DNA from: Escherichia phage vB_EcoM_VR20 | DNA length: 64,000 nt | Sequence record: NC_028894.1 | Direction: 5' to 3' (one strand) | Shown: piece after piece, positions 7,856 through 49,632 of the stretch | Layout of the letters: the number at the start of each line of letters is the position of its first letter | How positions within the stretch are numbered: position 1 is the first letter of the stretch | Made by a program: the position numbers and the translations under genes | The notes under the pieces: model-generated | The model's input: only the letters and a program-made list of their open reading frames with translations | Told to the model about the DNA's origin: nothing | Databases searched by the model: none

Positions 7856-9415
7856 ATGAAAAAGAATGCATTAGTTCAAAAATGGTCCGCTCTGTTGGAA
7901 AACGAAGCTCTTCCGGAAATCGTTGGTGCTTCTAAACAAGCTATCATCGCTAAAATCTTTGAAAACCAGGAACAAGATATCCTGACCGCTCCAGAATACC
8001 GTGACGAAAAAATCTCCGAAGCATTTGGTTCTTTCCTGACCGAAGCTGAAATCGGTGGTGACCATGGTTATGATGCTACCAATATCGCTGCTGGCCAGAC
8101 CTCTGGTGCAGTAACTCAGATTGGGCCGGCAGTTATGGGTATGGTTCGTCGTGCTATCCCGCATCTGATTGCGTTTGATATTTGTGGCGTACAGCCTCTG
8201 AACAACCCGACTGGCCAGGTATTTGCCCTGCGTGCAGTTTACGGTAAAGACCCTGTCGCTGCTGGTGCTAAAGAAGCTTTCCACCCGATGTATGCTCCGA
8301 ACGCTATGTTCTCCGGTCAGGGCGCCGCTGAAGCTTTCGAACCTCTGGCTGCAAGCAAGCTGCTCACCGTTGGTAAAATTTATTCTCACTTCTTCGAAGC
8401 AACCGGTTCTGCACACTACCAGGCTGTTGAAGCTGTAACCGTTGATGCTGGCGCTACTGATGCTGCTAAACTTGACGCTGAAGTTACCAAACTGCTCGAA
8501 GCTGGTAAGCTGGCAGAAATCGCTGAAGGTATGGCTACCTCTATCGCCGAACTGCAGGAAGGCTTCAACGGTTCTCAGGATAACCCGTGGAACGAAATGG
8601 GCTTCCGCATCGATAAACAAGTTATCGAAGCTAAATCCCGCCAGCTGAAAGCAAGCTACTCTATCGAACTGGCACAGGACCTGCGCGCTGTTCACGGTAT
8701 GGACGCTGATGCCGAATTGAGTGGTATTCTGGCTACCGAAATTATGCTGGAAATCAACCGCGAAGTTATCGATTGGATTAACTACTCCGCACAGGTTGGT
8801 AAATCTGGTATGACCAACACCGTTGGCGCTAAAGCTGGTGTGTTCGACTTCCAGGACCCGATTGATATCCGTGGCGCTCGTTGGGCTGGTGAAAGCTTTA
8901 AAGCTTTACTGTTCCAGATTGACAAAGAAGCTGCTGAAATCGCTCGTCAGACTGGCCGTGGTGCAGGTAACTTCATCATCGCTTCCCGTAACGTAGTTAA
9001 CGTACTGGCTGCAGTTGATACCTCCGTATCTTATGCTGCTCAGGGTCTGGGTAAAGGTTTCAACGTTGACACCACTAAAGCTGTGTTCGCTGGTGTTCTG
9101 GGTGGCAAATACCGTGTATACATCGACCAGTATGCTCGCGCAGATTACTTCACCATCGGTTACAAAGGCGCTAACGAAATGGATGCTGGTATCTACTACG
9201 CACCATATGTTGCACTGACCCCGCTGCGTGGCTCTGACCCGAAAAACTTCCAGCCGGTTATGGGCTTTAAAACCCGTTACGGTATCGGTATTAACCCGTT
9301 CGCTGACCCGACAGCTCAGGCTCCGACCAAGCGTATTCAAAACGGCATGCCGGACATCGTTAACAGCCTCGGCTTGAACGGTTACTTCCGCCGCGTATAT
9401 GTTAAAGGAATTTAA
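7856..9415 (+). CDS. 23: major capsid protein
   Basis: 519 aa; T4 gp23-like; paralogous to the gene 24 products. Confidence 0.97.
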   Translation: MKKNALVQKWSALLENEALPEIVGASKQAIIAKIFENQEQDILTAPEYRDEKISEAFGSFLTEAEIGGDHGYDATNIAAGQTSGAVTQIGPAVMGMVRRAIPHLIAFDICGVQPLNNPTGQVFALRAVYGKDPVAAGAKEAFHPMYAPNAMFSGQGAAEAFEPLAASKLLTVGKIYSHFFEATGSAHYQAVEAVTVDAGATDAAKLDAEVTKLLEAGKLAEIAEGMATSIAELQEGFNGSQDNPWNEMGFRIDKQVIEAKSRQLKASYSIELAQDLRAVHGMDADAELSGILATEIMLEINREVIDWINYSAQVGKSGMTNTVGAKAGVFDFQDPIDIRGARWAGESFKALLFQIDKEAAEIARQTGRGAGNFIIASRNVVNVLAAVDTSVSYAAQGLGKGFNVDTTKAVFAGVLGGKYRVYIDQYARADYFTIGYKGANEMDAGIYYAPYVALTPLRGSDPKNFQPVMGFKTRYGIGINPFADPTAQAPTKRIQNGMPDIVNSLGLNGYFRRVYVKGI

Positions 9416-9438
9416 TCTTAGATTAAGTTAAATAAAAA

Positions 9439-9462
9439 GGGACCCTTGAGGTCCCTTTCTTG
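9439..9462. terminator. intrinsic terminator hairpin (GGGACC-loop-GGTCCC plus T-run), usable from both strands
   Basis: Seen between convergent gene 23 and the minus-strand small ORF. Confidence 0.7.
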
Positions 9463-9465
9463 TTT

Positions 9466-9747
9466 TCATACCATACCATTTAAATGAACTTCTACCCGGC
9501 GCTTGATGAGGTCTCTGAAATTAACACTGTTCTCTTGAAGTTTCAACCAGGTACCTGATTTGTCTTTGGTGTGAGTAGAATAATTACCATTCCACCAAAA
9601 ATCAGTATCATATGCTAAGTTTTCATATTTTTTAACTAGTTTGTTCAGAGCATTACCATTAACACCATTTGGGTATTTGTTGACCAATGCAACAACTTCA
9701 ATTTCCAGATTTTTAAAGGTATTCCGAAGGAAAGATACTTTGTTCAT
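9466..9747 (-). CDS. hypothetical early protein, 93 aa
   Basis: Minus-strand ORF with GGAG 6 nt before the ATG and an early promoter upstream; no known motif recognised. Confidence 0.5.
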   Translation of the reverse strand: MNKVSFLRNTFKNLEIEVVALVNKYPNGVNGNALNKLVKKYENLAYDTDFWWNGNYSTHTKDKSGTWLKLQENSVNFRDLIKRRVEVHLNGMV

Positions 9748-9782
9748 TTTAGACTCCATTGTTTGGTAACTCAGTATGAAAT

Positions 9783-9813
9783 CATTATGTCTTATCTTAA
9801 TCAGGTTGTAAAC
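9783..9813 (-). promoter_or_regulatory. early promoter (GTTTAC-N18-CATAAT), antisense to the late gene cluster
   Basis: Minus strand reads GTTTACAACC...CATAATGATTTCATACTGAGTTACC, the shared early leader. Confidence 0.55.
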
Positions 9814-9819
9814 AACTTT

Positions 9820-9827
9820 TATAAATA
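9820..9827 (+). promoter_or_regulatory. late promoter TATAAATA upstream of gene 24
   Basis: Exact box about 27 nt before the gene 24 ATG. Confidence 0.7.
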
Positions 9828-9853
9828 AAGTATATCACAAAAGGAAAGCGCAA

Positions 9854-11134
9854 ATGGCAAAGATTAACAAATTACTGCGCGAGTCAACTACCACTACCAG
9901 CAACTCCTTGGGCCGCCCGAATCTTGTTGCTTTGACCCGTGCTACAACCAAATTGATTTACCGCGATATCATCGCTGAACAACGTACTAACCAGCCAGTT
10001 GCGGCTCTGTACGGTGTTAAATATCTTACTCCTGATAATGAATTCAGTTTCCAGACTGGTGCTACTTATGGTGGTGAAGTTGGTTCAAAAGACCGTACAA
10101 CTATTCCGGAATTTACAACCCCAACTCAGGCCGTAGCTAAAGGTGGATACATTAAATTCCAGAATATCGTTTATAAAGCTCTGGTTGATAATCCATTTGC
10201 ATCGACCACAGAAACAGTATTATCTGATGTTCTACAGGAAGGTCTTGTTGCATTAACTATTCGTTTAGTTCCTGATGCTGCACACACCGAAAAATTTGAA
10301 GCTGGTGATGTTGAAATTAGTAACGCTGTATTCCAGGTTAATAAATGGAATGCTCCTGTTAAATCCCGTAAATTGAAAACTGCATTAACTGTTGAGCTTG
10401 CTCAGGATATGGAAGCAAATGGCTTTAATGCTCCTGCGTTCCTGGAAGACCTGCTTGCTACTATTATGGCAGATGAAATTAACAAGGATGTTCTTCAGTC
10501 TCTTATTACCGTTTCCAAGCGTTATAAAGTAACTGGCGTTTCTGACAATGGCACCATCGATTTAACATATGATGCAGCTCCAGAAGGTGCACGTAAACTG
10601 TACGAACTGGTTTGCGAAATGAACTCCGAAATTCAGAAAACTACATCTTATTCCGGTACCTTTGTTGTTGCCTCCAGCCGTGTTGCTGCTATGTTGGCTG
10701 GTTCTGGCTGGCTGAAGCATAAACCTGAAGACGAACAGTGGCTTCCTGAAACAGCGTACGGTTATTTGATTAATGGTCTTCCTGTATTCTGTGATGTTAA
10801 CAGTCCATTGGATTATGTAACCGTTGGCGTTAAAGAAAATTACGGTGGAAACGAAGTCGTAGGCTCAATCTTCTATGCTCCTTATACCGAAGGCCTGGAC
10901 TTAGATGATGAAGAACACGTAGGTGCGTTTAAGGTCATTGTGGACCCAGACAGCTTGCAGCCATCTATCTCCCTGATGGTTCGATATGCGCTTTCAGCTA
11001 ACCCTTACACCGTTGCTAAAGACGACAAAGAAGCTCGTATTATCGATGCAACTAATATGGATTTAATGGCCGGCCAGAGCAATATGTCTTATCTGCTCGG
11101 TGTTAAACTTCCGCCAATCATTTATGAGGCGTAA
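9854..11134 (+). CDS. 24: capsid vertex protein
   Basis: 426 aa; N-terminus MAKINKLLRESTTT matches T4 gp24 as recalled. Confidence 0.95.
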   Translation: MAKINKLLRESTTTTSNSLGRPNLVALTRATTKLIYRDIIAEQRTNQPVAALYGVKYLTPDNEFSFQTGATYGGEVGSKDRTTIPEFTTPTQAVAKGGYIKFQNIVYKALVDNPFASTTETVLSDVLQEGLVALTIRLVPDAAHTEKFEAGDVEISNAVFQVNKWNAPVKSRKLKTALTVELAQDMEANGFNAPAFLEDLLATIMADEINKDVLQSLITVSKRYKVTGVSDNGTIDLTYDAAPEGARKLYELVCEMNSEIQKTTSYSGTFVVASSRVAAMLAGSGWLKHKPEDEQWLPETAYGYLINGLPVFCDVNSPLDYVTVGVKENYGGNEVVGSIFYAPYTEGLDLDDEEHVGAFKVIVDPDSLQPSISLMVRYALSANPYTVAKDDKEARIIDATNMDLMAGQSNMSYLLGVKLPPIIYEA

Positions 11135-12418
11135 ATGCAAAAGATTAACGCACTAATTCACGAATCAACATTAACGGCGGCCAACCAGGTCGCCCGTCCT
11201 AATTTGCTTTCTTATACTCAGGCCACGAATAAACGAATTTTTAAAGCACTCGTGGCCGAACAGAAAACTACTCAGCCAGTTGCAGCGTTGTATGGTGTTC
11301 GTGTTCTGAACCCAGATGATAAAATGACATATCTTGGTGGAGCAACGTTTGCGGGTCAAATTGGTATGTTCGAGCGTAAGAATATTCCAGAATTTACAAA
11401 CAAAGACGAAGCTTATGCAGTCGGCGATATGTTCCAGTTTGAAAGTGTTGTGTTCAAAGTTTTGGAAGCATCACCATTCGCCGGGACTCTTGAAACTGAT
11501 TTGGGTGAAGTTATTTCTGAAGCCATTGCTGCTGGCCATATAAGAATGATGTCGGATGCGGCTTTCACTGATAAATTTGAACAAGGTCATCCTGAAATTG
11601 CTGAAGCCGGTTTCCGTATTGATAAATGGCAGACCGAAGTCAAATCCAGAAAGCTGAAAACTTCTTTAACGGTCGAGCTTGCACAGGACCTGGAAGCAAA
11701 CGGTTTCGATGCAACAGACTTCATTGATAATATTCTCGGTATTCAGATGGCAGAGGAAATTAATAAGGATGTACTGCAATCCCTTATTACTGTCAGTTCT
11801 CGCTTCAAGGTGCAAGGTGTTTCTGAAAAAGGTGTATTGAATCTAACTGACCCGAAATATGATAACGCTCAGGACCGTGCGCGAACCCTGTATTATTATA
11901 TGTGTGAAATGAACTCCGCAGTTCAACGTCAGACTTCGTTTGCTGGTACATATGCAGTCGCTTCTTCCCGGTGTGCAGCTATTTTAGCAGCTTCTGGTTG
12001 GGTTGAGAAAAAGGAAGACCAGGATGAATTAGCCTATGGCGTTCTGAAGAACGGTTTACCACTTTATGCAGATATGAATAGTCCATGTGATTATGTTATT
12101 GTTGGTGTAAATGCTGATATGGGTGAAGGTCAGACGGTCGCATCTTTGTATTATGCGCCTTATACGGAAGGACTTAGTGAAGTTGATGATGAGGGTGATA
12201 CCTCGGTCGGGGAATTCAAGGTTATTGTTGACCCTGAAAGCTTGCAGCCTACTGTTGCGCTATTAGCTCGTTATGCATTGACAGCGAACCCTTATACGGT
12301 TGCGAAAGATGATAAAGAAGCTCGCATTATTGATGGTGCTGATATGGATAAGATGGCCAACCAAAGCCAATTGAGTTCTTATCTTGGTGTTAAACTTCCA
12401 CCACTGGAAAAAGAATAA
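11135..12418 (+). CDS. second capsid vertex protein, tandem paralog of gene 24
   Basis: 427 aa; clearly homologous to the upstream gp24 over its whole length; starts right after the gene 24 stop with GAGG upstream. Confidence 0.9.
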   Translation: MQKINALIHESTLTAANQVARPNLLSYTQATNKRIFKALVAEQKTTQPVAALYGVRVLNPDDKMTYLGGATFAGQIGMFERKNIPEFTNKDEAYAVGDMFQFESVVFKVLEASPFAGTLETDLGEVISEAIAAGHIRMMSDAAFTDKFEQGHPEIAEAGFRIDKWQTEVKSRKLKTSLTVELAQDLEANGFDATDFIDNILGIQMAEEINKDVLQSLITVSSRFKVQGVSEKGVLNLTDPKYDNAQDRARTLYYYMCEMNSAVQRQTSFAGTYAVASSRCAAILAASGWVEKKEDQDELAYGVLKNGLPLYADMNSPCDYVIVGVNADMGEGQTVASLYYAPYTEGLSEVDDEGDTSVGEFKVIVDPESLQPTVALLARYALTANPYTVAKDDKEARIIDGADMDKMANQSQLSSYLGVKLPPLEKE

Positions 12419-12440
12419 GGGCCTTGCGGCCCTTTTTTAT
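12419..12440. terminator. terminator hairpin GGGCC-TTGC-GGCCC plus T-run
   Basis: Between convergent gp24 paralog and rnlB. Confidence 0.7.
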
Positions 12441-13444
12441 TCACTAATTAATGCAATCCAAACATGTCTTAATGTTTCTCTTACATTTGCGATGAGTTGC
12501 TTTTTAACTTCAACAGGATTTTCCGTCAGAGTCAATTCAAGGCCTTCGCGACCGGCTTCTTCCAGAATATCTTGGACCGTTAGCCCCATTACCTTTCCAA
12601 AATCCTTCGGTGATACTTCACCAATCTTACTGATAACATTATTGATGCGGTTAACAGTCACATAATCAGTGAAATTCCACAGTAAATCCATATCATTTTG
12701 GCTCAGAACCACTGCAGCCTTAATAGGCTTATCAGACTTTTTCTTTTCACTGAATTTAGAGTTCTTACATTTAATCGCTACGCGCTCGCCGTTAGGTAAC
12801 CATGCAGGAACATCAGGTTTTAATACAAATCCTTCAGCAGTGAATACTTTACCTTCCACCTTTGCATCAAAATCAGTGGTATTTGCTGTAGTCAAACCCG
12901 CGTTATCCACTGTAAAATTGTAATCAGGGACAACAGAATCCAGGTCATTAGGGAGCTTAATTAATTCTTCAAAACTACCTGTAGCCAGGCGCGGCGCAAC
13001 CTTAAACTTATGGATAATACAGAATGCTTCCATAAGGGTGTCAGTCAGGACAGATTCAGTCCCATCTTCTTTAGTAACGCGGATATCAAATACATAAAAA
13101 TCTTTATCACCGTAATCCACATTCTTCTGGATACCTGCCCCGGCAAACTCACCATAAATCTGGTATGCCTGGTAATTAATATCCTGCAAAAGTTTCTGCA
13201 CAGATTTAATAGAATCTGCATAGTTCTTTAATACAATTTCATAACCATAGAAATCTTCTGCAGGCAGGATAGGTCCAGTGCGTTTCGCACATGTCACATT
13301 GTCTTGTTCAATGATTAATGAAAAGTTGGTACCATGAATCTTCTCGCGAGCTACCCATTCACCGCTGGTGAAGCCTTGCAGGCGAATCTTTTCAATGAAC
13401 TTGTTGTTATAGTGATTTTCAAGGCTGTTGTATTTCTTAAACAT
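12437..13444 (-). CDS. rnlB: RNA ligase 2
   Basis: 335 aa; KIHGTN nucleotidyltransferase motif; close to T4 Rnl2. Confidence 0.95.
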
Positions 13445-32546: not shown

Positions 32547-32584
32547 TTTATTCTCCAGTTGTTTTCATTTGTTGGTACAGGTCT

Positions 32585-32613
32585 ATAATATCATAACCTG
32601 TACCAAAGTAAAC
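32585..32613 (-). promoter_or_regulatory. early promoter with -10 inside the palindrome GGTACAGGT...ACCTGTACC
   Basis: GTTTAC then TATTAT about 17 nt downstream; 9-bp inverted repeat around the -10. Confidence 0.5.
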
Positions 32614-32617
32614 TGTT

Positions 32618-32986
32618 TTATGCGACTTTAATCCAATTATCTAAATTTAATTCACCCTTAGCTTTCATTTTTTCAATCAAATCATCAGCAGTGGTGCGAC
32701 CATTTTGATACCATGTAACATCTTCAGAATAACCAGTTTCTTCATCTTCATAGGTCTTACAACGAATCTTACCAAGAATCAAAGTTTTCAGTTCGTAGGT
32801 ATCACCAGTAAAAAAGTTTGTTACCATAATTTTCCAGGAGAAGTCATCAGAAGGACCTTCTGGAGTCATGCAAGAAACGAATTCAAATTGTTCTTTATAC
32901 AAGTGCCATTGCATTTCTTTAGTTTCAATGGCTTTGTAGCCGTCGTGGTCTTTACCTTTGATGTATGAGTTAAGATTGATTTTCAT
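32618..32986 (-). CDS. hypothetical protein, 122 aa
   Basis: ORF preceded by the same leader as 48405..48644. Confidence 0.65.
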   Translation of the reverse strand: MKINLNSYIKGKDHDGYKAIETKEMQWHLYKEQFEFVSCMTPEGPSDDFSWKIMVTNFFTGDTYELKTLILGKIRCKTYEDEETGYSEDVTWYQNGRTTADDLIEKMKAKGELNLDNWIKVA

Positions 32987-33026
32987 TTTATTCTCCAGTG
33001 TTTTATTGTGTAACTCAGTATGGAAT

Positions 33027-33057
33027 CATTATGCACTGGACCAACCCTGTTGTAAAC
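33027..33057 (-). promoter_or_regulatory. early promoter GTTTAC-N18-CATAAT with leader CCATACTGAGTTAC
   Basis: Near-identical cassette at 48685..48715. Confidence 0.55.
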
Positions 33058-33075
33058 CTTTTATGGAAATAAAAA

Positions 33076-33096
33076 AGGGACTCCGAAGAGTCCCTG
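33076..33096 (-). terminator. terminator hairpin AGGGACTC-TTCG-GAGTCCCT plus T-run
   Basis: Directly after the 53-aa ORF stop. Confidence 0.65.
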
Positions 33097-39104: not shown

Positions 39105-39140
39105 AATATTTTCCTCAAATATTTTATAATCCGTGGGAGC

Positions 39141-39169
39141 ATTATACTCTGCTCCCATGAGTTTGTACA
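39141..39169 (-). promoter_or_regulatory. early promoter with -10 TATAAT in the loop of hairpin GGGAGC...GCTCCC
   Basis: Minus strand TGTACA-N17-TATAAT. Confidence 0.45.
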
Positions 39170-39273
39170 CTACTTTCCAAAAAGACCCTGAACACATAAA
39201 GTGGCCGCAATTCCAAAACAAAAACAGAATGCACCAAATCTAACAATATCCCAACCAAGGCTACAGGTCTCTA

Positions 39274-40421: not shown

Positions 40422-40655
40422 TTAGTAGCGGTTGTAACCCCGGGGGCCAAAAGAGTTGGCACCCAGACGTTCATCTTTCTTTTTGGCTCTTGCTCTAAAC
40501 CCAGAATCACCTGTTTGAGCTTTCAGTTCTTTTAACAATTTGGCCTTCAGGTCAGTAATGAAACCAATCCGGCGGTCTCCCTTGTAGACATAGATTCCAT
40601 CATTTCTGTCGCCATATGCCTTTGTAACTCTGTCATTTGAAATTAAGTTTAACAT
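40422..40655 (-). CDS. Alc N-terminal-domain paralog, 77 aa
   Basis: MLNLISNDRVTKAYGDRNDGIYVYKGDRRIGFITDLKAKL is clearly homologous to the Alc N-terminus; GAGGA and early promoter upstream. Confidence 0.6.
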   Translation of the reverse strand: MLNLISNDRVTKAYGDRNDGIYVYKGDRRIGFITDLKAKLLKELKAQTGDSGFRARAKKKDERLGANSFGPRGYNRY

Positions 40656-40685
40656 GTTTTGGTCCTCATCAGTAGTTGATGGAAC

Positions 40686-40716
40686 CATTATGTATAGAAA
40701 GAAGGGGCTTGTACAC
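40686..40716 (-). promoter_or_regulatory. early promoter GTGTAC-N18-CATAAT overlapping the rnlA terminator
   Basis: Minus strand GTGTACAAGCCCC...CATAATGGTTCC. Confidence 0.5.
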
Positions 40717-40725
40717 CCCTTTTTT
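40700..40725 (-). terminator. terminator hairpin AAGGGG-loop-CCCCTT plus T-run
   Basis: Directly downstream of rnlA. Confidence 0.6.
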
Positions 40726-40726
40726 A

Positions 40727-41863
40727 TTATTCAGGCAGGATTACATCCGCTTGGTAGTCCACCGGGATGTAAAGTTTATGATTTTTAAGGAAAACATTAT
40801 TGATTTGAGCGATGGTTTGCTCTGTTTCCTGGGGACGTTGATAGGTGTTCATTAATACGGAGAACAAACCCGGATATGGTTTACACAACTCTTGACCTTT
40901 AATCGCAAACTCGCGTCGGTCTTTTCCCGCCAACTGTTTCTGGGCATCAAGCAACAGTCCCAGGGTATTGGACAGATAATCCAGATGTGCAATGGTAAAG
41001 GCATTAACTTTTTCACGAGCATAATCATCGCCAGTAAACATGGCAATAACATCATCTGCACCGCCTGCAACAACAACTTCAAACAGACGCTGGTTATTGT
41101 TAACAGAATCCTTTGTATGGTGTAAAGCACAATACCATTCTGTCTTAACTTTAAATTTGCGACCATCGACCAGCTCATAGACAAAGCCTTCAATCTCTTT
41201 CATATCACGGACGTTTTCAATTGTAGTCGGGTCATATGCTTCAACCAGGAATGGACGAAGCGCGGCATCTTTAAACAAATCCTGATAAGGGATATATTCG
41301 CCAGTTTCATTATGGCGAACGTTCAGTAAAATCAGGTCACGTTCCTGGTAAGGCAAAACAATGCGGTTGGTTGGTGCAACATATTCCATATTGCATGTAT
41401 AACCAGCTTCAGTAATTTCAGTTACACGCTCACGGAAAGCTATACGGTGTTCTTGTTTGAATACCTGCAGTGCTTCTGCTGCCTGGGAGCTTTTGATTGA
41501 CCCTTTGGATTTAAAAGCAATATTGGTCTGGTCCATATAAGTGGAGACAAGAGAGCCATCAGCCTTGGTCATGACCAGCGCAACTTCATCCATATTGATA
41601 TCCATGGTCAACGGATTTTCACCCAGATTAAAGAATTTTTCCATAGGACGAGCAGCAATGCGAACTGGACCATCGTCATCCATTTCAAACATAATACCAC
41701 GGCACTCCAGTGCGTCATCAAGAAGCCAATCACTATAGGAAGCATAGTTATAGCTAAAGATGCGGAACTTAGTTTCAAATGGAGAAACAAAATCCGTATA
41801 GAAAAACTTACCTTTATCGGATTCGGCGCAAAGCTTCATTAAGTTATCATATAATTCAATCAT
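40727..41863 (-). CDS. rnlA: RNA ligase 1
   Basis: 378 aa; KADG adenylation motif; synteny. Confidence 0.95.
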   Translation of the reverse strand: MIELYDNLMKLCAESDKGKFFYTDFVSPFETKFRIFSYNYASYSDWLLDDALECRGIMFEMDDDGPVRIAARPMEKFFNLGENPLTMDINMDEVALVMTKADGSLVSTYMDQTNIAFKSKGSIKSSQAAEALQVFKQEHRIAFRERVTEITEAGYTCNMEYVAPTNRIVLPYQERDLILLNVRHNETGEYIPYQDLFKDAALRPFLVEAYDPTTIENVRDMKEIEGFVYELVDGRKFKVKTEWYCALHHTKDSVNNNQRLFEVVVAGGADDVIAMFTGDDYAREKVNAFTIAHLDYLSNTLGLLLDAQKQLAGKDRREFAIKGQELCKPYPGLFSVLMNTYQRPQETEQTIAQINNVFLKNHKLYIPVDYQADVILPE

Positions 41864-48404: not shown

Positions 48405-48644
48405 TCACGCTTTCTTAGCGACTTTCCAGTCAGCTTTAAATTGGTCAACGTCAGAGTGATGAATCCAGAAACCAGATGAGCTACCATCTTCATAAAGAGG
48501 ACAACCATCACACTCATCTTTCCAACCCATTGCACACAAAGTTTCTTCAGCTTTTTCTAGAGCTTCTGGATTGTTACCCTGGATTGTGAAATACCATTTG
48601 CCTTTAACTTCTGAATCTTTGATGCTCTCACGTTGTAATTTCAT
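48405..48644 (-). CDS. hypothetical protein, 79 aa
   Basis: ORF with GGAG and early promoter upstream. Confidence 0.6.
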   Translation of the reverse strand: MKLQRESIKDSEVKGKWYFTIQGNNPEALEKAEETLCAMGWKDECDGCPLYEDGSSSGFWIHHSDVDQFKADWKVAKKA

Positions 48645-48684
48645 TTTATTCTCCAGTGTTTTAGTTGTTAACTCAGTATGGGAC

Positions 48685-48715
48685 CATTATGTCATAGCCC
48701 CATTTGGTTGTACAC
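48685..48715 (-). promoter_or_regulatory. early promoter GTGTAC-N18-CATAAT with leader CCATACTGAGTTAAC
   Basis: Near-duplicate of the cassette at 33027..33057. Confidence 0.55.
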
Positions 48716-48721
48716 TACTTT

Positions 48722-48976
48722 TTAAATTTTATCAAGCCATTTTCCAAGTTTAGTCATTTCCTTGGTGGCCTTTTCCATACTTCTGAACTTAACTAATAAA
48801 GGATGAACATCCATACCCATCACCAGATTGGTTGCAAGACTATGTTCACCAACAAGCCATAATGAGTATGTTTGAACATCCAAACCATAATTTCTGTCTT
48901 TATGCAAACGCACACCCATCACTTCAAATTGCTCACTCGCCTTTTCTACTGCATCCAGGAAATCATCTTTAGTCAT
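48722..48976 (-). CDS. hypothetical protein, 84 aa
   Basis: Start MTKDD preceded by GAGGT. Confidence 0.55.
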   Translation of the reverse strand: MTKDDFLDAVEKASEQFEVMGVRLHKDRNYGLDVQTYSLWLVGEHSLATNLVMGMDVHPLLVKFRSMEKATKEMTKLGKWLDKI

Positions 48977-48977
48977 A

Positions 48978-49346
48978 TTAGACCTCAAAAGTTGCTTTAA
49001 TCAGTGCAATGACTTCTGCGGCATTTTTGTGATTGACTTGCACATGAATGGTTTGGGTATCAACATCAGGAGCATCACTATCAACTTCCAGGAAGTGACA
49101 GAATTCCCATTCAGCGAGTTCAAAGTACTCATCAGCGTCACACATACTATTCAGGATGGTACCATCTTTCATTTCAACTTTTTCAACAAAATAATCACCT
49201 TCAATATAACACATATCCAGGATTTTGAAGGAATTGCCGTGTTGTTCCATCAACTTGACCATGCACGAATTATCATCAGGACTACCAGCGATGAATTGTT
49301 TTTTAGCAGCAGGGTCTAATACGTAAAATTTACCAGTTTCCATCAT
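48978..49346 (-). CDS. hypothetical protein, 122 aa, small-protein paralog family
   Basis: Start MMETGKFY preceded by GAGGAA; homologous to the 49695..50058 gene. Confidence 0.6.
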   Translation of the reverse strand: MMETGKFYVLDPAAKKQFIAGSPDDNSCMVKLMEQHGNSFKILDMCYIEGDYFVEKVEMKDGTILNSMCDADEYFELAEWEFCHFLEVDSDAPDVDTQTIHVQVNHKNAAEVIALIKATFEV

Positions 49347-49377
49347 TTTAATTTCCTCATTTTTGTTGAGGGAACAT

Positions 49378-49405
49378 ATTATCATGTTCCCGTTGGTTTG
49401 TATAC
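49378..49405 (-). promoter_or_regulatory. early promoter with -10 GATAAT in the loop of hairpin GGGAACAT...ATGTTCCC
   Basis: 8-bp perfect inverted repeat around the -10. Confidence 0.45.
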
Positions 49406-49632
49406 TAAGCTTGAATCAAGCCCATATAAAATTCAGCGTCTTCCGGGTGCATCCCTTCGCAATATTCATTTTGCATAAAGCGAGTAAGGTCTTCAAGAGG
49501 ACCTTGAACTTCAATTTGAATACTAAAGAATTGGGTATCTTTAATGTAAGTCATACACAAAGAAGGATACCGATTACGAATAACTTCGTAAGTGTATTCA
49601 AAATCAACGATATCAATATTAACCTTAGCCAT
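49405..49632 (-). CDS. hypothetical protein, 75 aa
   Basis: ORF with GAGGAAAATAAA and early promoter upstream. Confidence 0.6.

Follow-up and report, generated by a model that had tools for sequence, protein, structure and literature searches.

In the window, by which we mean the whole stretch of 64,000 nucleotides of Escherichia phage vB_EcoM_VR20 (NC_028894.1) that was analyzed, the interval between the genes for the major capsid protein and the capsid vertex protein harbors a small gene on the opposite strand, which is furnished with a putative early promoter, a leader resembling that of other early units, a ribosome-binding site and a terminator hairpin (Table 1). The gene order 23, small ORF, 24(1), 24(2) and rnlB is common to the window and VR7. 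The segment from 9380 to 9860 is 99% identical to its counterparts in the Escherichia phages vB_EcoM_VR26 and VR7 (Gaprivervirus, Tevenvirinae), and 91-98.5% identical to those in the remaining matched records (34 records matched in all). The tandem copies of gene 24 on the right flank code for proteins that are 57% identical to each other; two copies are also found in VR7, where they are named 24(1) and 24(2), and in JS10, and a single copy is found in T4, ST0 and LF82-8.

Table 1. Features of the gene 23-24 interval and its flanks in the window, with the basis on which each was called
Feature	Position	Strand	Basis
Gene 23, major capsid protein (left flank)	7856..9415	+	ORF list, VR7 annotation
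Two-way intrinsic terminator hairpin GGGACC...GGTCCC, T-runs on both strands	9434..9460		Terminator scan
CDS of the 93-aa protein, stop codon included	9466..9747	-	ORF list; ortholog of VR7 ORF190c / JS98 ORF173c, PHROG 6003
Shine-Dalgarno GGAG	9754..9757	-	Sequence; 6-nt spacer to the ATG at 9747
Leader CATACTGAGTTAC near the start site	9766..9778	-	Exact copy; common to two other early units in the window
-10 hexamer CATAAT	9784..9789	-	Promoter scan; same form as in other early promoters in the window
-35 element GTTTACA	9807..9813	-	Promoter scan
T4-type late promoter TATAAATA for gene 24(1)	9820..9827	+	Exact match
Gene 24(1), capsid vertex protein (right flank)	9854..11134	+	ORF list, VR7 annotation
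Gene 24(2)	11135..12418	+	ORF list
rnlB	12437..13444	-	ORF list

The mechanical ORF at this position in the ORF list runs over 9466..9759 on the minus strand and would code for 97 aa; its ATG (9759-9757), which falls within the GGAG, lacks conservation. Initiation at 9747 yields a product of 93 aa, and every ortholog uses this same start (with the N-terminus MNK or MTK); a GGAG or GAGGAG is likewise found at the equivalent position in JS10, ST0, LF82-8 and 04086. The 93-aa minus-strand ORF with a GGAG ribosome-binding site, which had been proposed in the initial annotation, is accordingly placed at 9747-9466, and the claim that the gap between genes 23 and 24 holds a small opposite-strand gene finds support both in signs of purifying selection and in a slot and orientation that are the same as those of segD in T4. 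The protein is 98.9% identical to VR7ORF190c and matches the profile of PHROG 6003 (function unknown) over its full length (E = 5.3e-49; residues 1-90 against profile positions 1-90 of 90). A tblastn search with the small ORF recovered matches in 236 phage records, and orthologs share both slot and strand across three genera: Gaprivervirus (VR7), Dhakavirus (JS10, 64% identity) and Mosigvirus (ST0, 38%). Compared with its JS10 counterpart, the ORF of the window displays a pN of 0.21 and a pS of 0.85, the synonymous sites being saturated, and among the five members checked both the length of the product (87-93 aa) and its pI (~9.5) are kept. The small ORF is a true gene, and the pattern of substitutions indicates that it is under purifying selection. 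It is not new: near-identical phages carry it as “hypothetical” in their annotation, the GenBank label of VR7ORF190c being a hypothetical protein on the minus strand “similar to JS98 ORF173c”, and a PHROG family exists for it; a search of the published literature for its names and accessions returned nothing. No paralog of the small ORF was found within the window.

An additional ortholog, in RB69 (NC_004928; minus strand, 8250-8535 of the locus L014), is interrupted by two indels, one of +1 and one of -1, so that the record lists two tiny ORFs instead, 188c and 189c, and the reading frame is kept only over some 20 codons at either end. This version is either a laboratory-strain pseudogene or the outcome of old sequencing errors.

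Upstream of the gene lies TTTACA-17-CATAAT (9812..9784, minus strand; with a G at 9813), which agrees with the consensus at 10 of 12 positions and has a 17-nt spacer. Taken with the AT-rich stretch upstream and the location on the early-gene strand, this site displays the sequence hallmarks of T4-type early (sigma-70) promoters. A window-wide scan for a GTTTACA-like element, a gap of 15-17 nt and a TATAAT-like element, followed by a Shine-Dalgarno and ATG within 60 nt, recovered 10 sites, every one of them on the minus strand (10/10), against 0.07 expected from dinucleotide shuffles; the promoter of the small ORF is among them. The GTTTACA element is conserved in JS10, ST0, LF82-8 and 04086, takes the form ATTTACA in T4, and is not found in fPS-2, whose slot is empty. 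Conservation of the AT-rich sequence that precedes the early promoter extends to phages with an empty slot, which is explained by the late promoter of gene 24(1) being situated there. This late promoter, TATAAATA, stands back to back with the early -35 element and is kept in every allele of the slot, including the empty one; the window contains 20 occurrences of the motif where 4.2 are expected.

The 13-mer leader CATACTGAGTTAC is found as exact copies at 9766-9778 and 33010-33022 and with one mismatch at 48668, and these three sites align with each other from the -10 element through the leader. Allowing up to 2 mismatches, the window holds 7 matches to the 13-mer, against 1.27 expected. As a 14-mer, the leader of the small ORF reads TCATACTGAGTTAC and not CCATACTGAGTTAC, the CC form being that of the 33010 and 48668 sites. 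The claim of a canonical early promoter in the initial annotation agrees, as far as sequence goes, with the GTTTACA-17-CATAAT site and its 10/12 consensus positions; that of a shared leader holds for the 13-mer, exact at 33010, but not for the CC form of the 14-mer, in place of which this unit has TC. As RNA, the 5′ UTR with the leader is unstructured (z +1.18). From these elements we infer that the small ORF is likely to be expressed early, from a promoter of the host sigma-70 type.

Elsewhere on the minus strand of the window, at 32618-33095 and 48405-48755, small early genes of 122 aa and 79 aa display nearly the same -10/leader/Shine-Dalgarno block, namely CATAATGrTyCCATACTGAGTTAmCA...AAAACACTGGAGAATAAAATG. 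The near-identity of these blocks suggests that promoter-leader cassettes may have been copied or recombined among early genes.

At its other end the unit is closed by the hairpin at 9434-9460, which couples a G+C-rich stem to a T-run and returns an intrinsic (Rho-independent) terminator score on each strand; the corresponding RNA folds have energies of -17 and -18.7 kcal/mol (z -3.1 and -3.8). It marks the end of gene 23 on the plus strand and of the small ORF on the minus strand, the stop codon of the latter being separated from it by 5 nt. The hairpin is also present in JS10, ST0 and T4, with differing stem sequences. The scan and the folds bear out an earlier proposal that the terminator is usable from both strands, but its placement needs correction, with the hairpin lying just outside the start that had been quoted for the region. 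A scan of the region against Rfam detected no family at threshold, and its matches to sraA and SraG, far under the gathering score, reflect the terminator hairpin only.

The 93-aa protein is basic (10.9 kDa, pI 9.6), with no cysteine and two histidines, and it has neither a signal peptide nor a hydrophobic segment. An AlphaFold2 model from a 7-sequence alignment (pLDDT 78.6) comprises a helix (3-24), a loop bearing N30-G31-N32, a second helix (31-47), an aromatic beta-hairpin (~50-75) and a C-terminal helix (77-89), of which the residues 50-75 are only moderately confident (pLDDT ~61-74); the first two helices are predicted to pair as a hairpin. In an alignment of 20 sequences, M1, K3, F6, N30, G31, N32, A45 and Q71 are invariant and L14, L21, N35 and K40 are nearly so; no catalytic motif was found in the protein. 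Scans of the protein and 8 relatives against Pfam, NCBIfam and PADLOC gave nothing credible, the best being single-member chance matches with E 0.004 or weaker. A sequence-profile search of the PDB returned only designed three-helix proteins with E above 0.2, and Foldseek found no match in the PDB at E up to 0.001 and one family member only in BFVD. The model and these searches together predict an orphan, non-enzymatic fold.

Wider searches recovered few relatives. A word-indexed search of 5.8 billion sequences with a 9-sequence profile yielded 22 clusters at 90% identity, whose lengths span 51-104 aa, with 17 of the clusters falling at 87-93 aa. None of the 22 has a Pfam domain or a fused domain, and NCBI names exist for only two fragment clusters (“hypothetical protein”). 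Among 1.84 billion representatives, a profile search matched 10, of which 4 were spurious, being long repeat proteins. These long matches (P0004 and similar bacterial Ig-repeat adhesins) were rejected as homologs, as they share only a short beta-hairpin motif (W.DG..ST..D.SGNW) that is repeated 9-13 times; the beta-hairpin segment FWWNGNYSTHTKDKSGNWLKLQ resembles the repeat motif TWPDGTTSTTKVDESGNWHTKV of P0004, a 1633-aa bacterial Ig-like repeat adhesin, and we judge this likeness to be a short structural motif and not homology. One member of 90 aa bears the JGI name “curcumin reductase”, which is plainly wrong. The protein family of the small ORF is tiny and phage-only.

Homologs with 30-36% identity are encoded by rV5-like phages (Vequintavirinae), as in the Acinetobacter phage ABPH49 (L004, 3001-3267) and in a further locus (L013, 5001-5264). 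There they reside inside long arrays of small genes on the same strand, one of which matches the Pfam family Phage_T7_0_6. This distribution indicates that the gene has been exchanged between unrelated phage groups, the T-even and the rV5-like phages.

The basic charge of the protein is conserved, with a pI of ~9.5-9.6 in all five of the members checked, and this keeps in play, as the main rival to the interpretation that we favor, the possibility that it is a basic DNA- or RNA-binding regulator and not a binder of a host protein, acting for example on host or phage transcription or translation or on the convergent late head-gene transcripts. The polar nature of the invariant N30, N32 and Q71, and likewise of the nearly invariant N35 and K40, together with the helical fold predicted by the model, would suit such a role, and there is a precedent in T4 MotB, which PMC7827196 describes as an early protein with non-specific DNA binding. 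Against this, no match emerged to a helix-turn-helix, HMG, ribbon-helix-helix or other DNA/RNA-binding family or fold, and we regard a nucleic-acid-binding regulator as rather unlikely.

Early “anti-late” transcription is a classical observation in T4. The present unit runs antisense to the late head genes, with gene 23 as its convergent neighbor, which raises the question of whether its transcript, as an early antisense RNA against the gene 23 or gene 24 messages or as a transcriptional insulator, is what matters, with the ORF being incidental. This is most improbable: with the terminator only 5 nt past the stop codon little transcript is expected to reach into gene 23, there is strong selection on the amino acids despite the saturated synonymous sites, the ribosome-binding site and the start codon are conserved, the rV5-like homologs occur in a quite different context, and Rfam provides no match. 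That the gene sits in the 23-24 gap of three genera could alternatively be read as a sign of a head-assembly factor or a minor virion component. However, the gene lies on the opposite strand behind an early-type promoter, with no TATAAATA upstream on the minus strand; T4 and many relatives with the same head do without it; and its rV5-like homologs sit in small-gene arrays and not among head genes. A role in the head is for these reasons highly unlikely.

The slot between genes 23 and 24 is polymorphic, with four states: empty (fPS-2 and many Tequatrovirus), the ORF alone (as in the window), the ORF together with segD, and segD alone (T4). The empty slot, of ~85 bp, comprises the terminator and the late promoter only. 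As the initial annotation stated, T4 does carry segD in this interval; it lies there on the minus strand. Combined arrangements are exemplified by the Mosigvirus LF82-8 (L006, 2064-2993) and the Dhakavirus 04086 (L007, 2076-3017), in which an intact version of the ORF precedes a segD-like gene that is likewise intact and of the same orientation; the product of that gene in LF82-8 is 57% identical to T4 SegD. The segD-like gene starts 3-4 nt after the stop codon of the ORF and has no ribosome-binding site of its own, the insertion falling precisely into the gap that separates the ORF stop from the terminator. A junction probe detected this arrangement in 38 of the 84 records with a JS98-type ORF, the remaining 46/84 having the ORF alone.

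The same slot and strand as T4 segD, and a product shorter than an endonuclease, would be in keeping with a decayed remnant of a segD-type (GIY-YIG) or an HNH homing endonuclease. This reading retains next to no probability: the BLASTP comparison with T4 SegD gives E = 3.9 over 25 residues, i.e., no similarity; neither the protein nor its 8 relatives (9 family members in all) match a GIY-YIG or HNH family of Pfam or NCBIfam at E up to 1; the beta-beta-alpha-metal fold is absent from the model; the ORF is under purifying selection with its length conserved; and an intact ORF sits beside an intact segD-like gene in 38 phages, which makes them separate genes. The lack of SegD similarity and the side-by-side occurrence of the two refute the remnant interpretation. 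The absence of a GIY-YIG or HNH motif, noted at first by eye, is thereby extended to profile scans for nuclease families, and the initial annotation's own caveat, that the ORF might prove to be a degenerate endonuclease fragment, falls away with the coexistence of the intact segD and the intact ORF in one transcription unit.

Given that the inserted segD lacks a ribosome-binding site of its own, it would probably need the promoter of the ORF and translational coupling to it; the junction sequences suggest that segD probably borrows both the promoter and the translation of the ORF. In T4 (NC_000866), the region directly upstream of segD displays a site that resembles a sigma-70 promoter well, TTTACA-17-TATTAT with a TG extension, followed by GGAG...TAAAATG, at a position homologous to that of the ORF promoter (L005, 7254-7282; T4 ~107253-107281, minus strand). 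A 2010 review (PMC2988022) held that no segD-specific promoter had been found and that segD transcripts were presumably vanishingly low. In the supplement of a 2022 time-resolved omics study (PMC9697503), segD is classed as an early RNA and a middle protein, with measurable SegD intensities. The promoter-like site fits this classification of segD as an early RNA, and is likely, on the strength of its sequence and position, to be the early promoter of segD; conversely, the early RNA of T4 segD behind a homologous promoter-like site offers indirect support for the predicted early firing of the ORF promoter in the window. We infer that the T4 arrangement arose from an ancestor with both the ORF and segD through deletion of the ORF.

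The adjacency of the two genes, which are probably translationally coupled in the 38 phages (a 4-nt gap, with segD lacking a Shine-Dalgarno), might alternatively mean that the 93-aa protein assists or takes part in SegD-type homing, for example as a regulator of the endonuclease or as a mobility factor. Yet most carriers of the ORF are without segD, including 30 records with at least 90% identity (the group of the window) and 46/84 of the JS98-type; T4 has segD without the ORF; and the rV5-like homologs have no annotated adjoining endonuclease. Free-standing endonuclease genes commonly insert at the end of an existing expression unit (PMC2988022), and the adjacency is more simply accounted for by such an insertion of segD, which leaves a helper function very unlikely.

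Taken together, we lean, with slightly better than even confidence, to the interpretation that this is a self-contained antisense early unit, the product of which is a dispensable accessory binder acting in host takeover or counter-defense. Under this proposal, the host RNA polymerase would recognize the sigma-70 early-type promoter and initiate near 9778; the ~30-nt unstructured leader and the GGAG would then direct translation of the 93-aa protein, and the transcript would be halted by the hairpin of gene 23, 5 nt past the ORF stop. The protein would be made in the first minutes of infection and would act stoichiometrically, binding a host or phage macromolecule without catalysis, in a role of the class typical of small T-even early proteins, i.e., host takeover or counter-defense. 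The comparison among phages shows the unit to be a landing pad for segD as well. That the ORF is dispensable can be surmised from its absence in T4 and many Tequatrovirus, from its frameshifts in the RB69 record and from the small-gene arrays that house its rV5-like homologs. Takeover or counter-defense is favored because the gene is early-type, small, dispensable, mobile between unrelated phages and without an enzyme motif. On the other side, no homolog of known function, domain fusion or informative neighbor points to a target, and the basic charge of the protein would be equally compatible with the binding of nucleic acids and of proteins.

A more specific version of the takeover or counter-defense proposal, which we put forward tentatively as a possibility more doubtful than probable, is that of an orphan-fold early effector, in which the N30-G31-N32/Q71 patch (with N35 and K40) and the aromatic beta-hairpin might neutralize a specific E. 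coli protein. A target such as a defense component or a core host machine would explain both the selection in three T-even genera and the exchange with rV5-like phages. It is more probable, if less striking, that the ORF unit was the ancestral landing pad, an account that explains why segD of T4 is antisense and early-expressed. Should the protein indeed be a takeover or counter-defense factor, the catalog of such factors would gain a new fold; the ORF alone matters little, as one of many small early T-even orphan genes. The four-state slot documents how a free-standing homing endonuclease gene comes to be inserted at the 3′ end of a pre-existing unit of expression, and the segD polymorphism and the candidate T4 segD promoter are by-products of value to specialists.

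Among characterized systems, the protein is comparable to small early host-takeover proteins of T-even phages, such as T4 Alc, T4 MotB (PMC7827196) and Gp94/Emp of phage AV110, in belonging to the ~10 kDa class and in its predicted early timing, lack of an enzyme motif and orphan fold, but there is no relation in sequence or fold between any of them and the 93-aa protein. Gp94/Emp, for which Foldseek likewise matched no functionally characterized protein, was described along with a systematic toxicity screen of early proteins from the Mosigvirus AV110, the candidates for which were chosen by homology to T4 early proteins (bioRxiv 10.64898/2026.09.14.751387). As it is without a T4 homolog, the small ORF should not have entered that screen, which consequently speaks neither for nor against it. 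Gp94/Emp itself is a different protein, of 109 aa, that is encoded next to a motA-like gene.

The closest parallel in organization is the segD locus of T4, with which the unit shares the slot, the antisense orientation, a homologous terminator shared with gene 23, a homologous late promoter of gene 24 and a homologous promoter-like site (TTTACA-17-TATTAT in T4, GTTTACA-17-CATAAT here) that is followed by a GGAG...TAAAATG start region. They differ in cargo: that of T4 is a 223-aa endonuclease, and that of the window is an unrelated 93-aa protein, predicted to be helical, the two being found in tandem in 38 phages.

A second parallel is offered by the cassettes of RB49 and phi1 that combine a PeSL, in which a stem-loop lies in or adjoins an early promoter, with an ORFan (Arbiol et al. 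2010; PMC2839356); recombination between such cassettes and the formation of mini-circles were addressed there by inverse PCR on infected cells. As in these, a small orphan gene with its Shine-Dalgarno is combined, in one movable unit of expression, with a strong sigma-70 early promoter preceded by AT-rich sequence and with a terminator, and the promoter-leader is repeated at other early genes (the 13-mer at 33010 and the near-copy at 48668). Unlike them, the ORF promoter is without a stem-loop, its DNA fold at 9765-9835 on the minus strand having an energy of -1.4 kcal/mol (z +0.75), and the unit lies inside a conserved head-gene module and not in a hyperplastic region. With the promoter stem-loop, the defining feature, being absent, a canonical PeSL identity was rejected for this cassette. 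Five other early promoters of the window that were tested, all on the minus strand (39110-39180, 49345-49415, 32555-32625, 40655-40740 and 33005-33095), do have a stable stem-loop (z -2.7 to -3.7), which in PeSL-like fashion overlaps the -10 or -35 element or sits just upstream.

Finally, there are the morons, a concept of Hendrix and colleagues, taken up in PMC2839356 too, for autonomous promoter-gene-terminator units; their definition comes from temperate phages, where it is usually the prophage that expresses them. The present unit differs in that its host phage is virulent and its signals point to an early lytic expression. It resembles them in having its own promoter and terminator, in its position between two genes of a conserved module and in being present or absent among relatives, and it fits the broader moron architecture.
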